20,000 nucleotides of DNA, taken from Raillietiella orientalis. Taxonomy: Eukaryota. A model generated the notes under the pieces. That model was not told the origin of the DNA. It saw only the letters and a program-made list of their open reading frames with translations, and searched no databases. The position numbers and the translations under genes are program-made. Below are positions 1-20,000 of this stretch, one piece after another (position 1 is the stretch's first letter; every line of letters begins with the position of its first letter). The DNA lies in NCBI GenBank assembly GCA_036172245.1, contig JAYWIR010000062.1, positions 612,627 to 632,626 of the forward strand, in the 5' to 3' direction.

Positions 1-1860
1 TACGGCAGGTGCCGAAGGATTGAAAGAAACAGCAGAGGGAACTTCACGATTACGTCAGGTGAATCTGAGAAGGAACAGGCATCGAAAATTCTGGAACTCG
101 AGGAAGAATTGGCAATCGCTACAAGGAAAGGGGTCGCATCGATCCGGAGGATGCTCGTAGGAACCCGCGTGGAAAGCACTTTCGATTTCACTCGTGCGCA
201 AAAGTCACGGATGGCGCCGCTTCCATCTTGCAGTGCACAGTCGGATCACGAAGAGCGATCGCCGGGCTGCTTGCTGCTTGTTCCAAGAGCGGTCAGTTGT
301 GACCGCGAGGAGCGGAACCCAGAAGCATTCCTCATTTCCGAGGGCGCCGATCGAAGGATGGCACCGCTCCCGTGGACGGACGGATTCCTTCCGGGTTCCC
401 GCAGGGGGGTTGTCTTTTTTCGCCCCCGGAGACAAGGTCATCCCTGAACCAATTCATAAACTCAATAAACTCTCACCGTGACAAGAAGAAGGACGAACCG
501 CCTCATGCTGGCCGGAATCGCATCTGAACCGCTTTGGAAAGATGGCACCAATCAGATCGAGTGCTAGCGGAAGAAAGAGGAACCGGCACCGGGATTTTTG
601 ATGCTGAATCTGGAGCGAGCACAGGAAAGCAGCCCGAGATGCCAATTCAGCAGTTGCGAATTGCAGCAGCTGGCTTTCCCACGCGGGGACTCCGCAGGTC
701 CCCGAATTCTTGCAAGCGCTGCCGTTTGCGCCTGACTCAAGCGAAACGCAGAACCTCGGTTCTTCAAGGTCAGCTTGACTTCGGAGAGTAGGGGAAGAAG
801 GAGGGGGTTGGCCTCCCCCGTTCAGCTGCCATGCGTCCATCTTGGCCTGTGCTCCCTGTTTCGGCAAAAAAGCTCCGTTTCTTCGCCTCGAACCGGGCGC
901 CTTCCCTCCATTCGCCCTGCAGGACTCAGGGAATCCCCTCCCTCCTCTCCGACGCTCCTTCCCCGGGACCACGAGAGGCGAGAAGAGGGAGCACACTGGG
1001 GGACCATTGCGATCTAGGATCGCAGCAGCAGCCTGTCCAAGAACCAGCAAGCACCGCTGGGTGCTCGCGACCGGAGATGATACGCCGATTCCTCTGCGCG
1101 CAGGAGCGGGGAGCCGCCCGACGCTTTCGTGGCGCAGGTGGGTTCTGCAAAGCAAACTGCCTCCAGCTCTGCTGATCTGCAGTCGCGAGCGAGCGATGCA
1201 GCAGACCGAAGATGCAGACTCATCCTTCTCGCATCACCACCTTCTGGAAGGGCGCCATCTCCGAGCGAAAATTCGTTTCCTCCGTAGCGGAAGTGTTTGT
1301 TCGGAAAGGGGGAATCTCGTGCCGCCGGCGCTGTGCTTCCCATCTTCCGGTTGTGCAGCTGGCTGTCATTCCCAGCATCCGCACTCCACTGGATCATGAA
1401 ATCATCAAAGGTCGGGACGCGCTTCCCGCGACACGATGGTGAGGGAGGTGAAAAAAGATGTCACGTCGATCTCTTGGGGAAGAGAGAGCGCCGCCGCACG
1501 GAGGAAGCGTCAAATCTTCTCCAGAAGTCTCCAGCTCGGTGGACTACCGAAGTGAAAGTGGTCCGACACATGCACTCTCATTTTGCCATTCTCTTTCGCC
1601 AGTTGCAAAGCGTCTCCCCCAAGGAGCCATTCCCCAGTGCACCCTCATAGTTGTGCGCTCGCTTGATTCCTCTGAAGCAACCTATTTTGCCGTTTCATCC
1701 ATGGTCCACTGAGAGGATGAGCTCCTGCCGATTGACCGATTGACTAGTCTTTCCTTGTGGGTCTGCCTTCACGCCAGACTTCCACCTTCGCCCTTCTGGA
1801 AGGAAGCACCCCCCACCTCCCCACCCCGCATGATCCATGACCGTGAACACGCCTTGGAAA
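1..1860 (-). mobile_element. Strongly decayed copy 1 of the same composite element
   Basis: Same order of relics as copies 3 and 4: extra-ORF-like minus reading (GTCGVPAWESQLLQF; LLAVTTDRSWNKQQAARRSLFVIRL) at ~100-750, then a plus-strand zf-RVT relic (FALQDSG..AHWG..KLPPAL) at ~830-1200. The ORF2 part is barely recognisable. Confidence 0.45.
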
Positions 1861-1884
1861 CGCAACTGCTGGATTGCACGCGGT

Positions 1885-2450
1885 CGTGCCGATAGATGGC
1901 TGCCAATTCCCCACGCGCGTGGTGCCAGGCGTCGCCGGTTTGAATCCCGCCCGGGGAAGGAGAAAAGATGCCACGAACGCGGGGGTGCGTCTTAGGTTTC
2001 GAGTTCTCCCCTCAGGATGGAACCGGATGCTTCCGCTGACAGGCCGTGATTGAAAGTCGACCCTCCGGGGTCCCTCCAGGAATGAAGGTTCCCTTGGGCG
2101 TTTCCCACCGGTTGTGAAAAGGGAACTGGTTGATACCTCCCCCTCGGAAGGTTGCCTCTCCAGGGTGTCAGGAAGAGCTCTGCTTTCTGCGGGGACAGCC
2201 CTCCAGAGAAATTCGGAAGCGTCTCTTCGGGGTTCTCTTCAGAGGAGGAGGAAACAGGAAGTGGATCCTTATCGGGTTCCCTCCATAGAAGAAGCGAAGA
2301 GTGCTCCTTTCCCTCCGTGGGGTCCCTCTGGAGAAAGTAAGGAAGAAAAGGTTCTCTCCGGGATTCCCTGCCAAGCGTAAGAGGGACGGACTCCTCACCC
2401 CAGGACTTTCCTGGATTTGCAGGGTAGTCCCCTCCCGGGGTCACCCCTAA
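1885..2450 (+). mobile_element. tRNA-headed SINE-like repeat, 3'-truncated copy
   Basis: CGCGCGTGGTGCCAGGCGTCGCCGGTTTGAATCCC (B-box 1937-1948), GGTTTCGAGTTCTC, CGGATGCTTCCG, GGGGTCCCTCC, CCGGTTGTGAA and GAAACAGG are colinear with the 7775-8295 copy. Confidence 0.7.
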
Positions 2451-3960
2451 CTTGAAGAGTTAGTGCGCACCCTCGGGTGGTGCGGACATTGATGAAGAAG
2501 AGCTCTGAGAGCTTCCCCTCCTCCTTTAAAGAGGCGAACGGTTCTTCAGCACTCCTTGAGAACCAAAAAAATCTGGAGGGAAAGCAGAGAGAACAGAAGG
2601 GTCCCAAAGAACTTCCATCATCCTGTTGGGTTCTTCGAGAAGTGACAGACGCGGCGACCCTGAATATCTCACCCACGGACTTGTACGCTGGGGAGCGCTG
2701 CTCAGCATCCTTCCGGAGGAGGTGAAGTGGCCCAAAGCATGCTGGAACAGTGGCGTCCTCCCCCTCAAGTGGCAGGAGTCTGAGTTGCCGGTGTTGCATG
2801 GGGGAATCCTATGCAAAGCGCGCCTTCACCACTGGACCCGGAGGAGCATGGATGCTCAGTGCAGCAGGTGCAGGAAGAAGGAGACGCACCTGCTTTTGGA
2901 CTATGCTGCCCTCCGATCCCTTTGGGATCGCATCTCGACGATAATAGGTGTCCCGGTAGGCAGCCCTAGGGGAATTCTCAGACGCCCCTCCACGTGCGGT
3001 GCCACTCTGCCGCCAGCCGCGTCCCTGCGACGAGGGATGCGTCGAGAGACGAGATCTCATCTGCAGCAGCGAGCGGAGGAGAATGCTACCTGCAGAGAAC
3101 GCGACCTCGTGGTCCCCGTGATCCAGCAGCAGCGACCACTGCCATGCACTCACACGCCTAGGGCGAAAAGGGAAGATCTCACTCGCCGACCCACGCGCTG
3201 TGAGTTCGACCAACTCCTCCGCTGCCGCCAACTCGTGGCTGACCTTGGAGGACTCAGGAGAGTCATCGCCTCGTTCCGCAGTAGCGGCCGCTCAGGAGGG
3301 ATTTAGGCTTGGAGCCACTTCACCTTCTCCAGAGAGATGTCGAGAGAGATGCACAGTATAGAAGTCCTTGGGGTGGGATACTTGGGGTCGCTGCCGAGTT
3401 GTCCACGGCTCCAATGGTTTCTTCTTTGCTGCTATGCAGCAAGTCACTTCCCACCTTGCCGTGATTGCTCTGTCCCATGCGTCCCTTAGGGAGGGCAGAA
3501 CTGAGATAAGGGAGGTAAGGAGTCCAACGTATCTTCTGCGGACGATCTCCTCCAGCGGCTTACAAGTATTGATGCCTCGCTGCAAGCAGGCAGCCTCGAG
3601 GCACTCCATCTCGTTCGTGTCGTAGATCTTTCCCTAGGCGAAGACCGATTCCTGGAGCGAGGCAGTGCAGTTCGAGGGGAGGCAGGAGATCCAGTTCTGC
3701 TCCACCAGGGCAACCTCATTTGACGGAGTTGGTATATCCGCAACGCCGCCTCAGCAATCTCTAGCGAGCGACGAGGAGGGACGCGAGTCCCTAGCAGCCG
3801 GTTGCTTTGCGAGAAGCCGTGCTGGTATGCACCAGGGTGTGGTCCATAGTTACGCCGCGAGGGCGAATCTTTTAAATTGGAGAGGACGCTCCATCCTCTC
3901 CAGCATAAGGAGGTCCAGTCCGCCATCCTCACGCGGAGGTGTGCGGTGGAATCCTTTGGG
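2450..3960 (-). mobile_element. L1/Tx1-clade ORF2 C-terminal fragment, copy 2
   Basis: One minus frame with scattered stops: PPREDGGLDLLMLERMERPLQFKRF...PW (3830-3940; GGLGL motif), LISVLPSLRDAW, KDFYTVHL (~3345-3370), PRRVSAWQWSLLL (~3125-3165). It abuts an antisense zf-RVT ORF. Confidence 0.72.
2626..3030 (+). pseudogene. zf-RVT-type (L1/Tx1 ORF2 C-terminal CCHC) coding segment, antisense to copy 2
   Basis: GLVRW..W..LPLKWQES..LHGGILCKARLHHWTR..CSRCRKKETHLLLDYAALRSLW fits the W..LH..CxxC..ET..H/L..C..LW pattern. Confidence 0.8.
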
Positions 3961-3961
3961 G

Positions 3962-4740
3962 TTCTTTTCTGTCTTCGTTGTTTTCCTTTCGTCTTTTTTT
4001 TGGCTCCCTGAGTACCTCAAGAGCCGCAGCGCCCCTGGCGGCGGCGCACGCAGCTCTGTGACATCGTCTCACACCTGGGGAGGGATCCCCGAAGGGGAAC
4101 ACCTCCGTCCTGGTTGTCTCCGAAGGGAACCCCGAAGGGAATCTCCTTCCTTATTCTCTCCGAAGGGACACCCGGAGGGAAGGGGTGCTCAATTTTTCTT
4201 CTCCGAAGGGAACCCGAAAAGGATTCGCTGCTAGGAAGAAATTCTTAGCAGCGGATCCTTTCATCTCCGGAGGAAACCTGCGAGGGAACCACTCCTGTTT
4301 CCGCCTCCGAAGAGAACTCCAGAGGGACACTTTCGAAATTTCTGAGAAGGGCGCTCCCCGAAGGGAGCGGCTCGCTTTGTACTCTGGAGAGGTGTCACCA
4401 ATCCACTAGCACCATGATACGAGACGGAGGGTTCCCCTCGAAGGAAGGGGTCCGCTCCTTTGCACAACCGGAGAGGAACTGCCACTCCTTGATTCTGCTT
4501 CCTGGAAGGACCCCGGAGGGTCGACTCCCAATCCCGGCCACTCATCGGGGGCATCCGGTTTGAACGGCTACTGGTGCCGCACCCGAAGCTAACCGAGGCC
4601 AACCAGTGTCATCTCGCGGGAGAAACTCGAACCCGCGAAGCACCCATTCCTCTGTCGTCGATGCTTTCCTGGGAGGGATTCCAACCCACGACGCTTGGTG
4701 GTGCCACGAGCGGAGACCTCAGCAGCCGAGTGGCCTCCGA
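3962..4740 (-). mobile_element. tRNA-headed SINE-like repeat, most complete copy (head, hairpin-array body, A-rich tail)
   Basis: The minus strand has B-box-like GGGTTGGAATCCC (4687-4675) and GGGTTCGAGTTT (4634-4623). The body aligns to 1885-2450 and 7775-8295 and contains repeated CCCTTCGG(A/G)G units. An A-rich tail lies at 4001-3962. Confidence 0.65.
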
Positions 4741-4915
4741 CGTGGGTTTAAGTAGCAGGGCAGTTGCCCGCCTCCTAAAATATAAATGCGTATTTTCATT
4801 CCAAGCTATATGGATTGGAGAAGAAGGTTCCCACGCTTCTTTGTTTTCTTTTTCTTTTTTTTATCGATCAGGTGCCATTATTCAACAGTTTCACGGAGCT
4901 TTGATTTTAAAATTT

Positions 4916-5922
4916 TCACAGAATAGGTCCCTGTCTTACTCTCTGGTTCTTCTGGACGCGATCAGCAGCAGGGTGACGTCGACGACAGCCGGCCCTGGGC
5001 ACGGACAGGCTGCCTGCTGCCGAGGAACCCGAATCTTTCAAGGAGAGCATCTTCGCGTTTTCCTTGTTCTGACTACTTAAGAGGAAAATGAATCCCTCGT
5101 ACGACAGAATAACCTTGAACACCACCATCACGATTGGTTCCTTGCTATGTCGAGGATCCACACGCCACTCAATTGCTGAACTTCCTTCGGCCTCGATTGG
5201 TTCCTCGATTGGTTGCTGGACCTCGAAGACGACTTGCTGGCGGCTGAACGTTCTGTGCTTATTGTGGTATACATAGACGCGCCCACGCGGTTGGCGACGC
5301 TCTCCCTGGCCTGCTGCGAGGTAACGGTTCCATCTTGAATTCGAGGAAGATGGCATTCCTGCTGCCATACGGATGTCTCTGTTCTCGATGAGGGCAGAAA
5401 CGATGGGATCCAGAAAGAAGGCCGGAGTGAAAGTGTTTTCGTGTTCCGACGCTGCTGCGGTTATGACGAACGTCCTTCCCCAGAATTCCACTGCGGAGAC
5501 TTCAGTCTCTCCGAGTATCGAGAAGATCTGCGTCTCGACGAAGCCTCCTTCTGAGTGGTCGACGGGGGGCAGAATGCGAACGAGTCGACGTCGCTGATGA
5601 CTGTTCTGGAGCGGTAGCTCTTCAGGGATATCATGAAGATGATGCTTCCCTTCTCAGCCATCTGGAGGTCCATGGTTCTTTCCTCTGATTCCATGCTCTG
5701 TGTGAGTTCGTACGTTCCTGCCTGCCGATCCAGTGGGAACGTCATGATCTCCTCTTCCGACCCACGTTCCGGAAGTCCAACAACCGCGAGCAGCTGCAAC
5801 CTCAGGGTGAAGATCACCGCGCCAATTTCCTCGGGGAAGTTGGGAGAGATGGGAGGTTCCGTCATGGGAGGGGATAGATCCCGTCTTCCCGGGTTCACCT
5901 GAGTGATTACATGTAGTGCCAT
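4916..5922 (-). pseudogene. Intronless ~335-codon ORF with one frameshift (~5570-5650); possible EPTP/EAR-repeat beta-propeller protein carried by the LINE
   Basis: ORFs 5461-5988 and 4916-5491 join through one frameshift: MALHVITQVNPG...LQLLAVVGLP...TYELTQSM...GSIIFMIS.../RILPP...GFVETQIFSILGETEVSAVEFWGRTFVITAA...RVYVYHNKHRTFSRQQVV...PIVMVVFKV. The repeated (F/Y)xxxQ..G..F-hydrophobic and VYxY..F..Q pattern resembles EAR repeats. Domain call is by eye. Confidence 0.55.
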
Positions 5923-6059
5923 CCGGATGAGTCCGCCAGGTGAAGGTAGATGCAGCTGCACTCCATCCTGTGGTAGTCCAGCAGGCAAGCCACCGCCACC
6001 ACCTCCACCGGTGCATCGAGAGAGAACGGTAGTGCCTGGCTGCAGGAAGCCGCGCGCAC

Positions 6060-6730
6060 GTGGGCGAAGATCAACGAGCGGAGCCCGGAGTTGCGGTAGC
6101 GACCTCTGTACTCCTTCTGAAACAGCTGCTCGCTATGGGAGACCATCGTGCATTCCACCAAGTGTGCGTGGACAGGACGAACTTCCCTTCCGTGGCGCTG
6201 TCTTCCCTGAAAGAGCATCTCGTCCTCAGCAACCTATCCGCGAAATGGGAAGTCTCCTGAGATATTTCATCCAGAAGCAGCACGCTTACTGGTTGGACCA
6301 CGGACCCGCTAACCGACGCTGAGATCCCAAGTCTCCAGCCGGAAGGACTTGTGCGTTGGTGCGAGCTGCCGAGCATTCCCCGTTTGGATCTCGAATGGCC
6401 CCCGGCGCTCCTGAACAACAGCACCCTCCATCTCAAGTGGCAGGAGTCGGCTCTTCTGTTGTTGCACCGGGCCTCCCACGCAACTTGCACCGATACCACC
6501 GGACCCGGGTGTGTGTGGATCCGAATTGCAGCAGATGAAGGAAACGGGAAACCCGCCTGCACATGCTTGTGGACTGTGTTGCCCTGCGACCGCTTCTCAG
6601 CGACGTCCCTTCGGACCCCATGCGGCAACCCCAGGGACGCACAGAGACCTCTCTTCGTGTGCGACACATTGCCGCCGGCCGCATCCCGAGCAGCTCTGTG
6701 CCGCCTACGCGGGATTGTGACGGCGGGGAG
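6060..6730 (+). pseudogene. zf-RVT-type coding segment, antisense to copy 3
   Basis: GLVRW..LHLKWQESALLLLH/GLPRNLHRYHRTR..NCSR*RKRETRLHMLVDCVALRPL..AASRAALCRLR, with frameshifts and stops. Alignable by eye to 2690-3030 at the nucleotide level. Confidence 0.8.
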
Positions 6731-7650
6731 CGACACCAGTGGAGGAGGAAGCTGCAGAGACGCCATCCATTTAGCCCTGTATTTCTCACGGAGGGCAGCG
6801 AGATGGCCCCACCTGGGTAATACAAGAGAGGAACTTGCCAGCATCCTGGAGAGGATGCAGACGACGGCCTCCAGCAAGCAATGATCTCTTCTCGTGCCTC
6901 CCTCCCCGTTCCAGAGTTTATTCATATTTGCATATATATGCTGTCGAGGCCATCCTCCCCGGTCCGCGCACTGGACGCCCGGCAAGCCGTGGAAAGGACA
7001 GAACTTGACGTAGCCAATGGCTCTACCATGTGGTAATATTTATCGAATTCAATGAACACCCACGGCGATTCCGGGTGAAAATCGATCACAAACCCCTCCC
7101 TGTCCTCCCTCGAAGTGCCCTAAGGAGGACAGTTCACTTTCCAGCAGTCACTTTGGTGGGAAGAAGCATGGGATGCTCAAACACCATGTAGACAGGTGAG
7201 GAAGATCCCTGAAACGAATAGAAAGAGGATTTTATTATCATGTTTTTTTTGGGTGGAGGTGGGAATGCCTATAAGAGGTTTTTCCTGTTCTGTGGAGACG
7301 AGTTTCAGATGTCTCTCTGGATACACCCTCTTCAGTGGTGTTTGAAAAAAGCTCCTTCCACGAAAGACGTCTGTTCGCTTGTTGGTTCGTCCCGAGGCAC
7401 AGGAGTCAAAGGATGACGTGTAATGACGGCAGCATTGTCAGTGATGCTTATCTGACGTTCGATCTTGTCATCTCTGTGAACTGGTTTACGTCCTGGTGAC
7501 GCCGTGGTGCTTCATCTTTGTCTTTTGCTGGTGTAAAATGAGAAGTCGGAATTTCGGCCTTGGTCTCTGAGTTTGGACACGAACTCGTCTCGTACAGACT
7601 AGGATGGCCCCATTCTTTTGAGGGACGCTGCTGCAGGAAGGTGGACGCAG

Positions 7651-7680
7651 GAAAAAAGAAAGAAAGAAAGAAAGAAGGAA
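7651..7680 (+). repeat. (GAAA)n microsatellite
   Basis: GAAAAAAGAAAGAAAGAAAGAAAGAAGGAA. Confidence 0.85.
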
Positions 7681-7774
7681 ACCGAAGTGCCAACACGTCA
7701 GCCGCATCCACGCGTGGTGTGGAAGTCCGTAGATTCGGACACTCGTTAAGAAGCTGATGGAACCGACTCAGCCC

Positions 7775-8295
7775 TCATCGGCGGCTGCGTGTCCGCGCGT
7801 GGCACTAGGCGTCACGGGTTCGAACCCCCCCCAGGGAAGAGTCGGCGCCGAGAAATCGGAGGAACGTCGTGGGTTTCGAGTTCTCTCGGCAGGATGACTC
7901 TAGATGGTCTATAGGCTCTGGATGCGGAATCGGATGCTTCCGTTGAATGACCGGGGATGGAATTGGACTCTTTGGGGTCCCTCCGGTACATCAAGGAGCC
8001 CTTCAGGGTTCCCCTCCGGTTGTGAAGATGAAGCCATCTCCTTCTCAAGGGGGTGGGGTGGAGGGGAGGAGGACCCTCTGTCTCGTACCCTGGAGCTGGT
8101 GGATGGATGCCTCTCCAGAGTCTCAGAAGTGCGTTGCTCCCTTTGGAGAGCGCCCCTCAGAGAAATATGAAGGGGGTCCCTTCGGAGTTATCTCCAGAGG
8201 AGAAACAGGGAGCGAATCCTCTCCGGACTCCCCCCCATGGAGAAATGAGGAGCAATTCCCTCCGGGGACCCCTCCGGAGAGGATGAGGAAGAAGA
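7775..8295 (+). mobile_element. tRNA-headed SINE-like repeat, 3'-truncated at the NUMT junction
   Basis: CGCGCGTGGCACTAGGCGTCACGGGTTCGAACCC contains a canonical Pol III B-box at 7817-7827, and a second B-box-like motif lies at 7871-7885. The body is colinear with the other two copies. Confidence 0.72.
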
Positions 8296-8299
8296 AGGA

Positions 8300-9720
8300 A
8301 TATGCACGGAATATGCGCCGTTGTATGAAGCGTTTTGTAGTCGAAAATACGCGTGGTGAGCTACGAAGCGTTTCGTGTTTCTGGCGTTTGGGTTTGCGGT
8401 GAGAATGATGGTAATTGCAAGTGGGAGGGGGATGGTAAGCGTAATTCTGGGATGGGATGGATCTGCAATCATCACTTACTGTTTAGTGTTTTTTTCTAAG
8501 TAGGTCATAGTTCTCACTATAACGGTGTAATTTGCGTTTTTCAGTACTTGTGTTGGTGGTGGATCCTTTGACGGGTGTGAATGGGTTGGCTGGTGGTGGA
8601 TCCTTTGACGGGTGTGGGTAGTTTGGTGGTGGTGGAATTCTTTGACGGGTGTGGATGCGTGGTGGTAAAAAAGTCATTCGAATTAGGTGTTTATGAGTGT
8701 AGGTAATTGGAAGTTTCACGAAGTTGTATTGATATGGGTGATCAAGAGCACAGCTGCCATTTAGTGCTTGGCAGCCAGAAGCTATGGAAACACCTATTGG
8801 CTTTCGGAACAACTTTCGTTCATTTGTCTACTCTGGTTACTAAGAGGATCTATTCGATAGTTCTGTTTGATGAGGTTGAGATTGGTTGTATTGGTGCATT
8901 CGACTTGCAGTAACAAACGCGCACCCAGGATTTCTAGGGAGGGCGAGGCTCGATGTAAAAAAGGCCATTGTATATTCTACATTGAGGCAATTGGGCATTA
9001 CTTTAACGTTTATTGCTACATGTTGCATTCAGATCATCGGTGTTTCTGCATGCAGTATCGGTGATCCATGGATGCAATGGAAGCCAAATTATGCATGGTA
9101 TAGGAAAGAGTTTTCGAAAGTCATTTAATGTTAGTGAGATGGAGTTGGTGAAGTTTGCTCTTTAAAAAGGTTGTTGTAGGAGAGAGTACTTAGCGGAATA
9201 GGCATCGTATTCAGTTTGGGGTGGTTTTGTTGACCTAATGGCGATGGTTGGAATGGTATTTAGAGTTCGGATGGTATTTTTGGACATCATATGCTGGAAT
9301 GATTAGTAATAGGAGGTAGGAAAAGGGTGGATAGGATGGGAAGATGGGAATGGAGACTATGTTCCGTTAGTGATTTTGAATTTCTAAGTGGTTGTAATAG
9401 CAGGATAATTGTAGAAGAGGTTGAAATGTTTCCTCTGTTTGATATGGAGAAGTATATTGCAGTTGTATTTGTATGATTGTCGGGTTGATAAAAGGCTGAA
9501 TTGTGATGCTGATATCAATGGAATTAAAGGTAATAAGAGGTTTGAGGATAAGCAACTGAGTGATGAGATTTGGAGGGCTGAGCAAGTTGGTAGATAAATG
9601 ATGGATGTAATGGAGAGGTGTATAGCATACTAGAGTAGTGAAGAGAGTAATAGGAAGAAGCGGTGATTGTAATGTTTCAGAGAAGAAATATTTATGGTGT
9701 ATTTTGTGATTTGTTATTAG
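8300..9720 (+). pseudogene. nad5: NUMT: degenerate mitochondrial NADH dehydrogenase subunit 5
   Basis: G+T-skewed stretch with colinear ND5 motifs when AGR is read as Ser: KRFVFLAFGFAVSMM (~8365-8410), ILGWDGSAIITYCLVFF (~8444-8495), SAQLPFSAWQPEAMETP (8745-8795), VHLSTLVT (8818-8841), DVKKAIVYSTLSQLG (8952-8996), SVIHGCNGSQ (~9058-9087), VDKWWM*WSG (~9590-9620). Multiple stops and frameshifts; the 5' end of the gene is missing. End coordinates approximate. Confidence 0.9.
8551..8660 (+). repeat. Three tandem copies of a ~36-37 bp unit inside the NUMT
   Basis: TGGTGGTGGATCCTTTGACGGGTGTG at 8554 and 8591; variant TGGTGGTGGAATTCTTTGACGGGTGTG at 8627. Confidence 0.9.
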
Positions 9721-9875
9721 GGATGACTCATTATCGGGGTAAAAAAGTTTCCGACTTTGAGTTAGATAGGATGCATTTTGAGTATATAATGTACTGATTT
9801 GTTTCTGAAAAAATCCAGTGATGTCATTGGAACGAAGGCAAATGCTGCATCTAGAATCGAAGGCCAGTTATCTAG

Positions 9876-10416
9876 ATGATATCTGCGTACTCAAGGTGGA
9901 GGATAGAGTATATGTACTGGGATATAATTGATAAGATTGACATGAAAGATAATGTCGGTATGCTTCTTTTTCAATGTATTGAGTTGAGTTATTTTGTATA
10001 AAAATGTTGCAATAAAGTCACGGCTCTATAATGTTGAAATACGTAAACTTGTCCATGATACAATTTCTTCCTTTACCTTTTCTTGCTCAGTGTGGAGAGT
10101 AATAATCATGAATTTTCGAAATTGAGTTTTAGAATGCTTTTTCTGAGGACTTTTGATTAAAGATACTTTTCTGTAGTTGATCCAGTTATTTTCCTTTACT
10201 CGCAGCCACCATACTAAGCGATTATTTGAGCAAATTACAGAAGAAATGGAATTTTTGTTGTTATTCCTATTCTAATATTGAAATGATCATTTTTTAGATT
10301 ACTTGACTGTGCAATTTAATCAAGGTTCTCTAACAACTTCATATGGATGGATTTCGCTGCCTTCAAAAAAGCGCTAGGATGACAAATTATGGAAAATCGA
10401 AAGAAAAACTGAAAAA
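9876..10416 (+). pseudogene. Possible relic of a multi-exon gene, product unknown
   Basis: Short protein-like frames bounded by splice-like sites: MISAYSRWRIEYMYWDIIDKIDMKDNV|gtatgc; NVAIKSRLYNVEIRKLVHD..WR|gtaata; ctgtag|LIQLFSFTRSHHTKRLFEQITEEM; ttttag|..YLTVQFNQG..KKR*DDKLWKIERKTEK|gtatgt. One acceptor is missing and there is an in-frame stop. Confidence 0.22.
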
Positions 10417-11407: not shown

Positions 11408-13360
11408 GTAAGTGTGTGAAACCTCAGAATATTGAAATACTTGACCTTTACATGTTCTGTTCTAAGAGTTTTTCTATTTGCTAATTATTCCATTTTTGTA
11501 TGTAATAACTAAAAAGATTCTGCAGTATTTACTCGGAAACTTTATAAATTTATGAATTTGTTTTATTTGTACTGGGCAGCATACGTGCTATATTCCATAA
11601 TTATTAATAATAATTTTTCTGTGAAGCATCTGATAAAGCATATTTTCTGTAAAAACATGATTTATCAGTTATTTGCATGCTTATGAAATTCTTTATACCC
11701 GATTGCTGTACAATCTTTTGACGTGATATTTGGAGATGAACACATTTGTCTATTTTTTTATTCATTTTTGGACTTCAATGATTGCACCATGAACTTGGAA
11801 TTGAAGCATCTGTTGATCAAAGATCGTTTATCAAATACCATTACATGCACGTTTTTCCAAAATTTCTCAAGTTTTATCATTGATGCTGATTTTAGTAATT
11901 TTATAAAAAATCAAAATTTATAATTGTATTATCAACCACTGTAAAAAATAGTTGTTTCCTTGTATCAAAAAAGCAGCTAATTTAGCTTTAAAATTTTTCT
12001 GTTGTAAAAGGGAGAAACGAGCATTTGTGCATACAAATAATACTTCTTCTGTTCTGTTTTTCAATATATGATTAAGAAACTCTAGGACTAAAATTAAGAG
12101 GCTAGCATTAAAGTTCACGTAAAAATAGAGCATTTAAGGCTGTATTCTGCTTTGCAATCACTGCTTTGTTTCAGAGAGCTGTTTCAAAAACTACAATTTG
12201 TTCCTTATGTTTCCATTGTGCACAAGGTTACATAAAATGTCTGTACTTTAGGGTGAGAGAAAAGGAGTGAATAAATATTATCCTCCTGATTGGAAACCGG
12301 AGATGGGTAGCCTTAATAAGTACCATGGGACCCATGCCTTAAGAGAAAGAGCTCGGAAGTTATCACAAGGGATTCTTATTATTCGATTTGAAATGCCATA
12401 CAATATCTGGTGTGAAGGATGTGGTAATCACATTGGCATGGGTGTTCGGTAAGATGCATTAGTTCTCAAGAATTAGCATTACTTGTTGACAGTTATAATG
12501 CTGAGAAAAAGAAGATAGGATCTTACTACAGCACGCCTATTTGGCAGTTTCGTATGAAATGCCACCTGTGCGACAATCATTTTGAGATCAAAACGGATCC
12601 AGCGGTGAGGATTGGCCTTCGTGCGATCCAACACAGTGTGCTGTCAGAATCTGGATTACATCATAGTCAGTGGTGCTAGAAGACAAGAGAAAAGATTTGA
12701 TCCTCGGCAGAATGAACAAGTTGTACCAGATGAGCGATCCATAATCCAAAAATTGGCCACTGATGCAATGTTCAGCCTAGAACATGGGGTGGAAGACAAA
12801 TTTAAAGCTGCATCTGTACAGCCTTCTTTAGAGCAATTAGAAGCTCTACAACAACGCTTCAAGGATGATTATTTGTCAAACAGTCTTCTAAGAGATAAAT
12901 TTCGAGTGAGTGATTTCACATTACGTGAAGTAACTATTTGATGCAGACCAGAAAGAAGGAGATTGCTGCCATTGCAACTCAAGATGCTGAATTGTTGAGG
13001 AAATGCAGTTTAAATTTGAAATTGCTCCCTGAAACGGATGAAGATCGAAAGTTAGCTGAATTACTGCGTTTACAACCTTTACATTGTAAGTTTTTTTGAC
13101 ATTCTTTTTCTGGGAATGAGGGTTGCATTTCAGCATTTGAAGAAAGGGAGCAAATGAGAAGGAAAGAGATTATTTCACAACCTATTCTTCCAAATCTGGG
13201 GACAAACTCTTCACAGTTGCATAATTCTAATGCTTCTTTAAAGTTTGATTTAGGAGTTGTGACAAAGAAAAGAAAACAAGAATTGGATACATCTGCTTCA
13301 GTACTATCTACATCATTAGTCTCTGGTGACTATGATTCCTCTTCATCCAGCGATACCTGA
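11405..13360 (+). CDS. YJU2B: Splicing factor YJU2B/CCDC130 (Saf4/Yju2, CWC16 family), 6 coding exons, 311 aa
   Basis: Exons 11405-11407 (ATG), 12252-12448, 12493-12604, 12648-12905, 12947-13085 and 13134-13360 join in frame through GT..AG introns. Product: MGERKGVNKYYPPDWKPEMGSLNKYHGTHALRERARKLSQGILIIRFEMPYNIWCEGCGNHIGMGVRYNAEKKKIGSYYSTPIWQFRMKCHLCDNHFEIKTDPANLDYIIVSGARR...LVSGDYDSSSSSDT*. The N-terminus matches CCDC130 (MGERKGVNKYYPP, ERARKLSQGILIIRFEMPYNIWC) rather than YJU2/CCDC94 (MSERKVLNKY). Confidence 0.96.
12252..12448 (+). CDS. YJU2B: YJU2B coding exon 2
   Basis: tttag|GGT GAG AGA AAA...GGT GTT CG|gtaag; encodes GERKGVNKYY...CEGCGNHIGMGV(R). Confidence 0.95.
12493..12604 (+). CDS. 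YJU2B: YJU2B coding exon 3
   Basis: gacag|T TAT AAT GCT...GAT CCA GCG|gtgagg; encodes YNAEKKKIGSYYSTPIWQFRMKCHLCDNHFEIKTDPA (second CxxC). Confidence 0.95.
12648..12905 (+). CDS. YJU2B: YJU2B coding exon 4
   Basis: gtcag|AAT CTG GAT TAC...AAA TTT CGA|gtgagt; encodes NLDYIIVSGARR...DAMFSLEH...DDYLSNSLLRDKFR. Confidence 0.93.
12947..13085 (+). CDS. YJU2B: YJU2B coding exon 5
   Basis: tgcag|ACC AGA AAG AAG...TTA CAT T|gtaagt; encodes TRKKEIAA...LKLLPETDEDRKLAELLRL. Confidence 0.9.
13134..13360 (+). CDS. YJU2B: YJU2B coding exon 6 (terminal)
   Basis: ttcag|CA TTT GAA GAA...; in frame with ORF 13154-13360 and ends LVSGDYDSSSSSDT-TGA. Confidence 0.9.
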
Positions 13361-13470: not shown

Positions 13471-14269
13471 ATAATTTTGTTATGGATTTAGTACCATTTA
13501 TTTTAAATTAGGGGAAACCATATTTGTTAATGGTGTCATGTAAATCATTTTCTCCAAGTGTTGAAGCTGACAAAATTAACTGCTGTAGGTAACTTTTTGA
13601 ATGCAGGGTTGAAAATCGTTAATGGTGAGAAAACTTCTGAAACATGAATCAGACTTTAAAACATGGTTTGAATAGTTTTGTAACCCATGCTTTATTTCTT
13701 GAATATATTTCATGAGAAACTTTGCGTGCTTGATTTTTTCCTGAGATTATTTTGCAACATTCAGTGATTTCAAATGAATTTTTTTTTTTTTTATATTCTG
13801 CTCCAAGTTTCTAATTCCAAAAGCTGCAGTGATGAGATTGCAAAAGGATTTCAGCATCATTAAAGAAACATCTTTATACTTTCATCATAGCCAAGTATTT
13901 TATGAAGAACGATCTTATAATCTTTTTTAAAAAGTCTGGTCTCACCCAACGCAAATCTAAAGGGTGTTCGTGGAGGACAGTACTAAGGAGGAAGTGGAAG
14001 GTGTTGAGGGAGTGCAAATAAATAAATGGTTATGGGCATGGTTGGTTCTAAAACGGTTTCATTGTGGCAGAAGATTTCTCAGGATTTCCACGAAAAATCT
14101 CATATAACATAAACTGACTGACTGAAAACTGCCACTTGCCTAGGAAATTTAATTTGCGCACAAAAGTGATTGGACGAAATTTACAATGCAAAGCCTTCTG
14201 TTAAAATCATTATGTTAAAAAATGACAATATGGTTTCCTTATTACTTTTGACAGTTTTGAATCGTGGTA

Positions 14270-16430
14270 GAATCTAGCCCTTCACTATGGGCATTCTCAT
14301 TCCCATTGGAAACGGCGTGAGAGTGAGCATCAACCATGTGAGCACTTTGTCACTTGCGGGAACCCCCACGAAAGACAAGGCGTTAAGACTACATGCGCCC
14401 GCTGCAAGGGTAGGCGACCCACCGGACCCACGCACTCTAGCAAGACCAGGGCTCGCAGTGGTCCAGAGTAGAACTCCAAGCACTTGATGACCTCTTCAAG
14501 TCGGAAAGCAATGCCAAAGACGGTTTGGCCAAGATGTGGGGGAGGTTCAGGCAATCAGCCCTAAACCCACTGGCCACCAGGACCGTCCTTTGGAGAGCAG
14601 AACTGCCTCCAGAGATCCAGGGCTGCTTCCTGATGTTCCATCATGGGGGGATCCTGTACAGCACAAGGACTCCTCATTGGACCAGAAACCCAGATGATGG
14701 AGACTGTTCTGCATGTGGGAGCCTAGAAGTCCCTCTCCAAAGACTGGAGAGTGGCCAAGCAGGCTCTGAACTTGCGAGAGCAGTCCGGACTAGAGATCCT
14801 TCAAGAACTCTTCCAAGGAGATAGAATCATCCTCCTGAATAACCCCATGCTAAGGCTCATTTTGGCCTTTTTCGTTGGAAGGATCCTCATCATCCTCAAA
14901 GCTTCGAGGGGGCACGCAGGACTTAGCCATGCTGATCCTAACGGGACTCCTTGGGAAAGAAATAGGGATACGAAACCGCGGCATGTTGGTGTAACTAAAA
15001 GTTCATGCTGGTAGAGTACTGACAGGAACTTTTAGATACCCTGGGAAAGGTACAGGAAGCACAACAGCAAGTCGGTGCAAGGGTGAGTGCCACAAAGTAG
15101 AAGAAGGAATTTCCCCCCTCCCTTCCTGCTTTCCTACACCCCATCAACTCTCCATCCCGATTCTTGGCTCCCCGTAAACGGCAAAACCATCGTGGCCTAG
15201 TGAAAAATACAGGAATTGTCAAGGACAAGTTCATAGCCTGCTTGACCGGCAACGGAATCTTTTCAAGGTCTTCCTGAAATCCTGTCCTCTGCAAGAGCTC
15301 TCGACGTATGGCTTAAGAGCAGCAGCAAAAAAGATGTGTTTTTCTCAAGGTGTTCTTCAAAGTCCATTTAGGAGCACAAGTTACCGGAACATTTCTTTTT
15401 ACTTGACTTTCGTGCTGCTGCCTGTAACTCCTGAAGCTACTTTCCCGTGAAAACACTTTTGGATACGAGGTCGCTGACCCTCTTTGCGGATCCTCGTGTG
15501 AAGAGTCCTCCTTTTCGCTACGTCTAAGCCGAAGCCAACCTTCTGTTCTTAATTTGAAGCACCGGAACATCACCGTCTTCGGTTACTGATTTCCGATGAC
15601 AGTGAAACCACCGGAAGAATTGGTCTCCTAATCACAGTGCACTCCGGAGAAGAATGGCAGAGCGATGCTTCTGAGAAAGAGGAAGGAGGAAATTGGGATA
15701 AACGGAGAGAGCGCCATGTTTCTTACTGTTATCATGGGAAAGCATCGAACGAACTTCTACCGCACTTCTTGACGCACCATAGCCCCTCCTGATCGATTCT
15801 TCTCTTTGTCCTGGAAAACGATCCGATAAGAGGGAGGATGCAGTTAAATCAGGGACTCGGTGACAGCCTTTGCACATGTGACCAAAGAGTGCCCTCGAGG
15901 ACTGGGAAACTAGAGGAACATCGCCATTCGCTCCGAGTCCACTCGAAGAGGAAACAGAAGAGGCATCAGCCACAGATCAGCCCATAGCGTTTCGCTGCTG
16001 CAGAGGAATCGCAAGACAAACGTGCAAACCAATTCTTTGGTGAACAAAAAAAAAAAAAAAAACAAGCGGACTTGGTCTTCTGAGGCTGTGGTGAGAGCTG
16101 AGGATCCAATGGCGAGCGTGCGTGCGTGGAAGAACTTGAGCGAGTGAATGCTCCTCCGTAGAACTCATTCGGGAGTCCATTCCACCGCAAAGACTTCTGG
16201 CGGAGCTGGCTGCACAGTTTAGACTGATCGACTGGACCTGAGGTTCGAACACGAATGAGCGAGCGAACGCATGAAGGACCTGAGAGAAGACGGAAGTCGT
16301 CTGGGAGACAGAAGCTCTCGGTCTGGGGAAGTGTGGGAGGAGAAGAACCGTAAACGTCTTTTCTGCTCTTCAAAAAACGAAAGGTTCCAAGCATCTTTCG
16401 CATGAGAGACCACGCTGCAACAAACTTCAG
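14270..16430 (-). mobile_element. Decayed, internally deleted L1/Tx1-clade element, copy 4
   Basis: Minus strand: KSLRWNGLPNEFY (~KSPGPDGLPxEFY, 16158-16196), PKNW (16029-16040), KGCHRV (~KAFDRV, 15854-15871). An antisense zf-RVT ORF lies at 14525-14910 and the start of the extra 3' ORF at 14274-14483. Confidence 0.7.
14525..14910 (+). pseudogene. zf-RVT-type coding segment, antisense to copy 4
   Basis: LWRAELPPEIQGCFLMFHHGGILYSTRTPHWTRNPDDGDCSACGSLE, followed after a frameshift by the hydrophobic post-zinc-finger helix MLRLILAFFVGRILIILK. Confidence 0.8.
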
Positions 16431-16470
16431 ATCTGCACGAAGCGAAGAGTTTGGTTCAGGATGCAGAGAA

Positions 16471-16632
16471 GGTTAGGTTTGGTTAGGTTAGGTTACGTTA
16501 GGTTGGGTAGGTGAAGTGGGTTTGGTAATTTGGGCAGGTGAAGTAGATTAGTAGAATGGGTAGGCGAGGTCAGTTGCGATAGGTTGTTTTATTTTATTTT
16601 AGGTTGTCTTCGGTTAGATTAGGTTAGTTTGG
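16471..16632 (+). repeat. Degenerate (TTAGG)n telomere-like tract
   Basis: GGTTAGGTTTGGTTAGGTTAGGTTACGTTAGGTTGGGTAGG at the start; 5-nt periodicity is still visible at GGTTAGATTAGGTTAG (~16612-16627). Confidence 0.75.
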
Positions 16633-16776
16633 GTCGATTTTGCTGAATGTTGTGTCTAGTAGGTGAAGTGCATTAAAAGGATGGAATGCGTGAAGATCTG
16701 TGCCCATGGAACTGAGACGTGGTCCTCTCGTTCGATAAAAGCTTCCCCGTGATCTCCTCTGAAATCTAAAATCAAC

Positions 16777-19700
16777 TTCTTCCTTTTTTTTCTCTTCTGC
16801 GAAAATACCTACAGGGTTGCAGCACGTTTGTGCCTTCGGGCAACAGAGAGGAGCTCAACATTCGTTCCGATGATTGCCTCCCATCCACGCTAGCTACGAA
16901 CGGCTTCTTCCGCTACCGCAGTGACAGACGAATCTCTCTTCACTCAGAAAATGTTGTAACGGAAGGAAATTAGCTCAGGGGGAAGTTTTCTCTTTGAAGT
17001 TTTCCGCTATCTCGCAACAGGTCATTCGTCTGTTCGAATCTGGCCTGTTACTTCTCTATCATCCTCCACACACAAAGAAAGATACTGAGCATTCCTTCAT
17101 CTCGTTCCTTCGGGAAAATTCTTCGCCGATGCGAGGCAGCCATGCAAAGGTGCTGCTGCTGCGAAAACAGTCGCCGAAAGGTCAGGAAGGATTTTCGATT
17201 AGAAGCGGGCGATTCAGATCCACACCTTCCCAAGGGAGTGGAAATTTCTCCCGACTGTGAAACCTCACAGATGTCATCCGTGTTTGGCATGGTGGACGCC
17301 AGTCGGTTCCTCCTGTTTGGAGACTTTCAAAGGAAACTTTGAAAAGTTCCAAAAAAAAAAAAAAAAAAGAAAAGCTTGCTTGCAGCTACGTGGAAGTTTC
17401 GAAGCAGCTGACCATTTCCGGACGGCAAAAATCGGAGGAAGGAAACTGACTCACGAGTCGAGGAGTTTCCAAATTGCAATTGGCTGCTTGTGTTCCAGAA
17501 ACGTGCCAAAGTAGGAAATCCGGGAAAAACGCTTGCCTGAGGACAGGAGAAGCTCCCTTCTGCACGACAAAGAACCAATTGGAAATTCTTCCTGCAGCCG
17601 CAGAGAGGCATCAAGTTCAGTGAGCTTCAATTCCCTCGCCTCAGATACCGGAAGCCGTATCTTGGTTGCTTCGCCTTGGATGACGCTCCGGGCACCGACA
17701 GGATGGATCCTCGGAACGCGGACCCGGACAGTACTTAAAACCTTCAAGCACGTGGCAAGACATAGACGAAAGATTCCCGGAGGGAAACTGCACCAGCAGT
17801 TCGTCCCGGAATTGCAGCTCCGAAAGCCTAGAACGGCCCGACCTCTCAGGCAGCTGAAACTTCCGGTGTAGCAAGAAGCAGATTGCGGTTGGTTGCTGCC
17901 GAGGAGGAGGAGGAGACGACTCCTCCAGATCCTCCAGCCTTCCAGATCCAGAGTAGCAGGTTGAGGTTCTGTCCATTGAATTCACCTTCGCCTCGTGTTG
18001 TGGAGGGAGGTCATGGAGCAGCCCACCGGCAGAGTGTCCGTCGGTGAAGCAGAGTGTCCGTTGTGTCCTAAGGACAGGAGGATTTCCTGACAAGTACTGC
18101 TGTCCTTTCCTTCCCAGGCAAAGCTCCTTCTAATCCTTCTGTTCTAGACTTGCTCCATTTCTCTCCTCTGATTCTCCCATACTGGCTTCCTGGTATCCTT
18201 GGAGACGCATGCTAGGTGAAGGAACTCCAGTGCTTCGTTTTGGAAGCGGAGTAAACGCAGAGCTACAGAGGCAAGACGAGGAAATCTCGTACGTGTTTCC
18301 AGGTCACTCTCGTCTGGCCCGCGAGAAGTGGCACACGTGAGGAGAATGGTAGAAACGTGCTCGCAAAGGAGGCTGCAGCTCCGAGGATGGTTTGAAGTTT
18401 TCTGCAAAAATTCCTTTTCTCATGGGATGCTGATCTTTCCAACATCACGCAAAGATCGGATCTTCTCATGCGACGCAAACTGCTGCCGAAGGAGATGAGG
18501 CGCTCTCAGGCATACAGCGTTGGAAGAACCGCAGTGTCCAAGACTCACTGCCCTCCGGATCCATCAAAAGAGACGCAGTGACGCCGAATTCAGGGAACGC
18601 ATGAAGCAGCACCCTCCAGGCCCCTCAAGACACTGATCTCAGAAGCGAAACATGCGAAACAGCTTCCACCTGAAGGTTTCTTTGTCACAGAAGAGCCGGA
18701 GAGCTCCATTTCCGTTGGGAATTGGGAATTCCCGGTTCCATGAAAATGTGACAAACTCAAATGCCTTCAAAATAAGGAAAGGGAAAGCAAGCGTGAAGTC
18801 ACACGTCAGGTTAATTGATTCTAAGAGAGTCGAAACCGATTCTATCGAACGCCAGCGAGTGACGTAAGCATCCGGCTGGCCGTCGACCGATCCCTAAACA
18901 CCAAGAAGCCATTTTGTTGCCCCAAGATGTTAAGCACCTCGGTTCAGTCTTTGATTCGGGCAGTCTGCAAGTGCGGAAACCCGGCAGGATAAATTCTGCC
19001 TGCCATGTTCAAGTAGGGGAACGCGCTGTTGTTTTGGACGGAGCTTTGCCCCACGAGCGAGATCACCTAGCATCCATCACATCTCCTCGAATGTGAAAAG
19101 GCAGCCGAGACCCCAGCTAGCTATCCAAGAACTGTCGCTTCGTCCCCCTGGAGAGATCGGAGAGCCTCGACAGTGCAGGGAAGGTCGAAGAGCTCCTGCA
19201 TGGTCACGCGCCCAAAATGCGCGCGAAGCAGACCCGAACGGTCCACTCTTGTTTTTCGGCCCGACAGCGTGGCAATCGCTCGTGGTGGTCTCGGGAGCGT
19301 GCTAGGAATGATGAGTGTGAGCACACGCGAAGAAGCCTGGAGCGATCCCAGCGTCATCTCGCAGGAGGACTCGAAACGCACTCGCGTTCCAGCCCGCATC
19401 GATTCCAGGCCCGCGACTCTCTAGGTGCCTCGAGCGGTCCGCAGCTGGTTGGTGGGGCAACTGGACTTGTGCCGCCCGCCAGTGACTCGCGGGCGCCCTC
19501 GCGCGTTTTCGCCTTCCCTAGACGAAAACGCTAGGGCGGAAGTTCCAGGGAGGGAATCCGGCATCATCCGTCCATCCCCTCGAGTTCCGATGGAAACGCA
19601 GAAGGAAGGTAAAGAGGCGAACGCCGCCGTTCGCTCCTTCGGACCGGCGACTTTCGATCCCATCTAAGCATTCGAGTTTACCAGTTAGGTCTTTCCACTT

Positions 19701-20000
19701 GCATATGGCTTCGGACACGTCCTGATGCACTCTGGAGAGAACGTCCGACTTGGAGGACCTTTTGGAGAAATACGACAGGATCGCTTGCCCGTCGTCTTCC
19801 AGCCTCACGTTCTGAAACAGACCGTTGTGTTTTTCCTTTGCTGACGAGGATCCGCTCGCTTTTGCCGGGCGCTTCGGGAATTCGCGACCGTTCGAATCCG
19901 TTCGCTGTCGCGCAGCTCTCCGCACGCGCGCACGCATCACGATCTCGCAAGGAACGGGGATTTTCGACGCGCGCATGCGCACCTCATTATGATCGTGGCG
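16777..20000 (-). mobile_element. Decayed L1/Tx1-clade non-LTR retrotransposon, copy 5 (ORF2 linker, RT, zf-RVT, 3' region, A-rich tail); continues beyond the window
   Basis: Minus-strand motif relics in the expected ORF2 order: TDSNG..LF linker (~19900), KVAGPKERTAAF (~KxPGPDGxTAEF, 19620-19655), SHWR (~NWRP), AIATLSGRKTRVDRSGLLRAHFG (~SLDxEKAFDRVD..FG, 19210-19280), LRSLQGD (~RQGD, ~19150), EVLNILG (18921-18940), L*QRNLQVEAVSHVSLLRSVS*G (~FLW..VS..L..GGL, 18620-18695), FLLHRK (~17860). T-rich tract 16777-16797 reads as an A tail on minus. YADD not preserved. Confidence 0.7.

Follow-up and report, generated by a model that had tools for sequence, protein, structure and literature searches.

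In target-specific LINEs, every copy is bordered left and right by one and the same target sequence, and Tx1L of Xenopus is a LINE that lands in another transposon. Where an L1-type copy is inverted by twin priming, the sense piece holds the 3' end and the tail, and the inverted piece is the more 5' of the two and lies upstream of it. The zinc ligands of the zf-RVT module follow the pattern C-x2-C ... H-x4-C. In the available text of two sources, zf-RVT appears as the zinc-binding module of LINE ORF2 and is listed after the reverse transcriptase (RT) (PMC5563155; bioRxiv 10.1101/706580). The available text of a further source names 5'-inverted L1 copies as a class (PMC2912911), and the accessible portions of three others deal with chimeric LINE retrocopies of the U6/L1 type that arise by template switching (10.1101/2025.02.02.635956, PMC4476161, PMC2104539).

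Here, we analysed a 20,000-nucleotide stretch of Raillietiella orientalis DNA (the window) that harbors several plus-strand segments coding for a zf-RVT-like domain. A preliminary description of this DNA had offered two readings of them: a functional, antisense-encoded protein without an RT, or a second site-specific element family that repeatedly inserts in antisense at the end of a minus-strand ORF2. Within this window, we find no support for a functional antisense protein or for recurrent antisense insertion at a specific site. Instead, the plus-strand segments probably represent tail pieces of non-LTR (LINE-type) retrotransposons, dead and truncated at the 5' end—ordinary genomic debris. 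What was directly observed are the homologies among the fragments, their lesions, the neutral pattern between two of the copies, the different 5' extents and the lack of a detectable RT; the LINE origin we infer.

The preliminary description had placed plus-strand segments near 2626-3030, 6060-6730 and 14525-14910, and these are real and related to one another. The first, c2 (2645..3025, plus strand), is a 5'-truncated fragment of what we refer to as the c family. It is spanned by a 248-codon stop-free frame (2560..3306, plus strand) and encodes ..LPLKWQES..LHGGIL..HWTR..CSRC..ETHLLLDY... The second, c3 (6012..6687, plus strand), is a longer 5'-truncated fragment of the same family, with positions 6312-6687 constituting the part homologous to c2. 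Comparing the window to itself aligned these two copies at 65.6% DNA identity over 285 nt (E 6e-29), plus a stretch of 67 nt at 70%. The third, c4 (14540..14737, plus strand), carries HGGIL..R..HWTR..D..CSAC and represents a fragment of a second, distant lineage: it matched c2 in protein only, and in the plus frame only (36% over 72 aa, E 1.8e-6 among 600 six-frame pieces; E 1.8e-7 by phmmer). A further relic, proposed at 830-1200, did not rise above noise level, be it in DNA alignment (z 0.4 to 1.5), by phmmer (E 1.4 to 10) or against a profile built from the three copies (E 1.1 to 2.6).

With respect to domain identity, the name zf-RVT that had been given to the segments stood in part. A Pfam search for zf-RVT (PF13966) returned no family at all for c2 and c3 at E ≤ 10 and none for c4, which yielded sub-threshold GATA and DAP10 matches only. 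In the Atlas feature search, c2 scored 0.95 with 192 shared features, and 25 of its 30 matches were PF13966 clusters; c4 likewise scored 0.95 with 165 shared features, 10 of its 30 matches being PF13966 clusters and zf-RVT ranking first. The Atlas recognition values of 2216 (c2) and 1963 (c4) both lie below 2300, a level reached by 91 of 100 known-family proteins. Manual inspection revealed the Cys/His pattern in pieces. In c2 it reads C-S-R-C-x4-E-T-H-L-L-L-D-Y, the last ligand being Tyr; c3 has the first Cys, a TGA at the second and E-T-R-L-H-M-L-V-D-C kept in another frame (6539-6820); and c4 retains C-x2-C only. Together, the three copies rebuild C-x2-C ... H-x4-C, which is whole in no single one. 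As Pfam gave no match and the support comes from the Atlas neighbours and the visible Cys/His pattern, we term the segment zf-RVT-like rather than a tested member of this family.

Searches for relatives outside the window came back empty. Querying 1.84 billion representative proteins with the c2 frame by phmmer identified none. Word-seeded searches of longer proteins left no relative at E ≤ 10 out of 3332 candidates for c2, nor any out of 456 for c4. The PDB sequence search gave no match to c2. Metagenome scans returned 132 pattern matches to the A1 profile, none of them a relative, and no match to a 35-nt IUPAC pattern. An AlphaFold model of c2 alone, at a mean pLDDT of 39.5, was too poor for fold comparison. 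With no relatives of c2 or c4 found, there is consequently no full-length element that would link the fragments to an RT.

The preliminary description further held that each plus-strand segment converges on a minus-strand ORF2, a claim the window does not bear out. Pfam detected no RVT_1, endonuclease or zf-RVT in any of the 187 stop-free pieces of at least 60 aa taken from all six frames window-wide, nor in any of the 147 shorter ones (33-59 aa) from the GC-richer parts at 1-8600 and 14000-20000, making 334 open pieces in all. Regular expressions for RT motifs matched four times, never in an RT-like context. The position expected of zf-RVT, C-terminal to an RT within one ORF, was not observed: no RVT_1 match precedes any of the copies, nor does the rest of the window contain one. 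The RT may simply be missing from these copies, all being 5'-truncated. In addition, the right flanks of c2, c3 and c4 are mutually unrelated on both strands (z -0.7 to 0.9), and no long frame exists on either strand to the right of c3.

Minus-strand zf-RVT relics had been reported for copies 2 and 3. The one beside c2 is there, at 3394-3307 (74% identity), and the one beside c3 is not (z 0.8; no phmmer match below E 10 in that region). We also considered 18593-18766 as a minus-strand relic; it shares only 10 of 27 residues with c4, which we judged to be chance. On the minus strand to the right of c4, 690 codons fall in frames of at least 80 codons, as compared to 307 ± 140 in shuffled sequence, a value reached by one of 200 shuffles, and this excess counts against the LINE-debris reading. 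It lies at 14900-16500, and one of the frames runs through a plus-strand A16 tract. The minus-strand ORFs in this region have no Pfam relative, and the PDB matches obtained for three of them were chance matches to antibodies (E 0.4 to 2.1).

The minus-strand relic next to c2 turned out to be part of a larger fragment, c2inv (3307..3700, minus strand). Its positions 3394-3307 match 2651-2738 of c2 (89 nt), the fragment being cut off at 3307, and its upstream part is collinear with c3. In family terms, c2inv covers about 300 bp upstream of the point where c2 starts together with the first 93 nt of the segment. DNA alignment of these upstream 300 bp, which extend to about 3700, gave z 6.1 for c3 and c2inv, z 1.1 for c2 and c3, and z 0.3 for c2 and c2inv. 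As c2inv thus matches both the c2 segment and the DNA upstream of c3, it belongs to the same family as these two copies rather than to a different element. Comparing the c2inv ORF to the upstream frames of c3 at protein level produced no match; the homology shows only as collinear DNA alignment. Between c2 and c2inv lies a 282-bp spacer (3026..3306) without an A-rich tail, unrelated to the rest of the window on either strand (z -1.0 to 2.3).

The c family therefore exhibits variable 5' truncation, a feature of non-LTR retrotransposons: c3 and c2inv reach about 300 bp further 5' than c2, which is truncated by that much further 3' than they are. A fixed 5' start with an ATG, which had been named as a mark of a functional protein, is not seen. 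The first in-frame ATG of the c2 frame falls at codon 97 (2848), four codons before C-x2-C, and none precedes the domain. One observation at the other end counts against the LINE-debris reading, namely that the homology between c2 and c3 stops at one shared point (3025/6687), inside the open frame and with no stop or tail there. A break in either c2 or c3 alone would suffice to produce this common end.

The preliminary description had named tails and target-site duplications as support for a second family. No tail was found on c2 or c2inv, and no target-site duplication longer than 8 nt was found for c3 or c4. The candidate 3' tail of c3 is an A-rich (GAAA)n tract (7652..7681, plus strand), 965 bp beyond the end of the c3 homology, which we infer to be that of the c3 element. 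On the simplest reading, 6012-7681 would be a single plus-strand element with its own 3' region. The 3' flank of c2 does not match that of c3 (z 0.2), so c2's own tail is not identifiable.

A second repeat, R, accompanies the c family. It is about 740 bp long and unrelated to the latter, and occurs in three copies of 63-75% identity: R1 (1890..2625, plus strand), whose 3' end lies about 20 bp before c2; R2 (3940..4725, minus strand), an inverted copy that ends, on its 3' side, some 240 bp ahead of where c2inv has been mapped to start; and R3 (7770..8300, plus strand), which begins some 110 bp beyond the (GAAA)n tract and is devoid of the last third of the repeat. R shows no codon periodicity and is, by that measure, non-coding. 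Its head contains GGTTCGAAyCC-like and GGTTTCGAGTTC motifs, which we take to resemble a pol III B box; a 40-bp subrepeat lies inside R (4103-4181), whose 3' end is rich in A and G. A tRNA-derived origin of R was considered and is unsupported, with both ARAGORN and Rfam finding nothing.

Two of the three c-family pieces immediately follow an R copy that points the same way, and they do so at different c positions (junctions at 2620-2650 and 3700-3940). Simple random insertion does not predict that c pieces follow R in two of three cases, and this adjacency accordingly counts against the LINE-debris reading. It could reflect an insertion preference or template-switch chimeras. The mirror layout as a whole, R1-c2 facing c2inv-R2, could have been generated by independent insertions beside R, by chimeras in which the template switched from R to the LINE, or by an old inverted duplication.

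In the reading we favour, LINE debris, the ancestral elements would have been LINE-type, their ORF2 ending in a Cys/His (zf-RVT-like) module. The copies c2, c3 and c2inv would stem from one old family and c4 from a distant second lineage. After insertion, the copies would have decayed neutrally. The tail-to-tail look of copy 2 would then go back to two fragments of the same family that came to lie in opposite orientation, both closely following a copy of R. Besides the observations named above, the lack of Pfam recognition, the Atlas values below 2300, the empty searches for relatives and the missing RT, endonuclease and target-site duplications count against this reading.

The layout might alternatively stem from a local rearrangement, in which an ancestral unit of R plus c was duplicated in inverted form by palindrome formation and later deletions left R1-c2 and c2inv-R2. 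The order R1(+) c2(+), c2inv(-) R2(-) is indeed mirror-like, and its arms are similar (R1 and R2 73-75% identical, c2 and c2inv 74%). However, each arm resembles its counterpart no more than it does the third copies (R1/R3 70-75%, c2/c3 66-70%), the two arms are not collinear, as the c2 and c2inv upstream alignment above shows, and the distance from R to c is about 20 bp on one side and about 240 bp or more on the other. Because the arms are not more alike than either is to third copies and are not collinear, we rank inverted duplication low and regard it as unlikely.

Antisense homing would account for the same arrangement by having c2, the 3' part of a c-family LINE, insert backwards into c2inv, an older copy of its own family, just upstream of the zinc motif. 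In line with this, two same-family fragments do face each other with their tails, and the break in c2inv falls at family position +93, within the coding stretch. The arrangement is, however, seen for one of three copies only, with no related minus-strand sequence to the right of c3 or c4. Moreover, the 282 bp of unrelated, tail-less DNA separate c2 from c2inv, the remainder of c2inv beyond +93 is absent left of c2 (z -0.2 and 2.6), and the 3' flank of c2 is unlike that of c3. We hence consider antisense homing improbable. The idea of a second site-specific family, from which it derives, was right in that the segments behave as separate element copies with different 5' extents; no ORF2 was found as the target, the flanks are unrelated and the partner c2inv is of the same family.

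A broader version would endow the c-family LINE with a landing preference, such that it went backwards into the zinc-finger part of its own older copies or became joined to the 3' end of R by targeting or template switching. We give this, too, a small chance. A constant target at the same nucleotide, as in Tx1-type elements, was not observed: two of the three c-family pieces have R as their left neighbour, with unequal spacing.

Conservation through different codons had been the main argument for selection, and the underlying observation on copies 2 and 4 is exact, every named codon pair included. Over 66 aligned codons, c2 and c4 have 26 identical residues, 18 of which are specified by different codons, among them Arg CGC/AGG (twice), Arg CGG/AGA, Ser AGC/TCT and Cys TGC/TGT (twice). 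Codon positions 1, 2 and 3 differ at 32, 32 and 49 of the 66 codons, respectively—a third-position excess with p 0.0026—and pN was 0.49 as compared to a pS of 0.84. Selection on the plus-strand protein while the copies diverged is thus borne out for this pair. It is not for the same-family pair c2 and c3, which differ at 40/126, 36/124 and 47/123 sites of the three codon positions (32, 29 and 38%), without bias (chi-square p 0.29). The alignment of c2 and c3 contains 21 gap columns, some in runs that are not multiples of three, and their similarity surfaces in several frames on both strands, for example at 56% over 41 aa in a minus frame. The divergence of c2 and c3 is hence neutral decay.

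All three copies bear lesions in the motif. The last Cys, encoded by TGT in c3, is replaced by TAT in c2. In c3, TGA occupies the codon of the second Cys (6536-6538); this copy has also suffered one or more frameshifts and gained 6 nt by insertion. In c4, the His...Cys half of the motif was lost by deletion and frameshift; Glu and Trp are about 6 codons apart, with a change of frame between them, as opposed to 14 codons in c2. Nor is the 248-codon frame of c2 unusual for this GC-rich DNA: an open frame of at least 248 codons was reached in 28% of 200 dinucleotide-preserving shuffles of 1-8500. Given the neutral pattern between c2 and c3, the motif lesions in all three copies and the unremarkable open frame, we ascribe the constraint to active ancestors and not to the present loci. 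The residues that c2 and c4 share via different codons would accordingly go back to purifying selection on those ancestors, before the copies were deposited.

The hallmarks of a functional gene—a start codon, an intact frame and purifying selection among close copies—were found in none of c2, c3 and c4. A functional, antisense-encoded, RT-less zinc-finger protein, to which the long open frame of c2 and the protein-level constraint between c2 and c4 could have pointed, is therefore hardly credible in view of the late ATG and non-significant frame, the zinc ligand replaced by Tyr in c2, hit by TGA and a frameshift in c3 and deleted in c4, the neutral c2/c3 pattern and the empty search of the representative proteins.

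With this outcome, an antisense gene and a site-specific element both cease to be candidates, and the finding matters little in itself. It does provide a worked example of how conservation through different codons between two transposon fragments is not equivalent to selection at the present loci, a test for which copies of the same family are needed.

As for the surroundings, three plus-strand stop-free pieces at 12252-12938 matched Saf4/Yju2 (PF04502) with E 3e-20, 4e-17 and 3e-13. This region, possibly extending to 13357, comprises exons of a plus-strand Saf4/Yju2 (CCDC130/CCDC94-like) splicing-factor gene that occupy three frames and are separated by very short introns, and c4 follows about 1.5 kb further downstream. 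The gene region is AT-rich (32-39% GC), and the parts at 1-8500 and 14300-20000 are GC-richer and repeat-like. Where GC-rich repeats give way to AT-rich DNA, at 8001-10000, GC skew amounts to 0.29 and 0.53 in 1-kb windows, and a 37-bp tandem repeat is present in three copies at 8554-8666.

Within 1-8500, we counted seven frames of at least 200 codons, as compared to a mean of 1.34 in 200 dinucleotide shuffles. No Pfam match was obtained for any of the seven; several of them (454-1233, 6071-7039) read along the minus strand. A minus-strand fragment occupies 4840-6010, its tail marked by a tract at 4840-4863 that reads T-rich on the plus strand and A-rich on the minus strand. It contains the long minus-strand frames 4916-5653 (245 aa) and 5461-6132 (223 aa), both devoid of Pfam matches; for the minus-strand ORF at 5464-6132 within the latter, no relative emerged at E ≤ 1 among 3274 longer candidates. 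Further to the right, the plus strand carries poly(A) tracts at 16046-16063 (A16) and 17351-17375 (A18), which are likely tails of plus-strand retro-insertions. The A16 tract could close an element containing c4. Target-site duplications were looked for at these tracts and none turned up.

Viewed next to the described systems, the locus bears a partial resemblance to each. It is like Tx1L-type insertion in that repeat R closely precedes two of the three c-family pieces, and unlike it in that the flanks of the copies are unrelated, no remainder of R follows a c copy, and the c pieces are in sense rather than antisense relative to R. The two same-family pieces in opposite orientation, overlapping by 93 nt in family coordinates, recall 5'-inverted L1 copies. 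Twin priming was considered for c2 and c2inv and rejected, as the topology is reversed and neither piece has a tail. As far as the available text on U6/L1-type chimeras goes, the joints share with them a fixed 3' end of R beside a 5'-truncated LINE part, in the same orientation and at different LINE positions; they differ from them in that both c parts are devoid of 3' ends and tails, there are no target-site duplications and the joint of R2 and c2inv is mapped only approximately. The closest likeness is to the L1/Tx1-type LINEs that carry zf-RVT. Unlike these, the fragments come without a Pfam score, an RT, an endonuclease, a target-site duplication or a full-length relative here, and they are not assignable to the L1 as opposed to the Tx1 clade. 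Like them, they display constraint between lineages only, the C-x2-C ... H-x4-C pattern in pieces spread over the copies, and an A-rich tract after one copy. And as in 5'-truncated, 'dead on arrival' copies of L1/Tx1-type non-LTR elements, they consist of the 3' coding part only, differ in their 5' extents and decay neutrally within one family.
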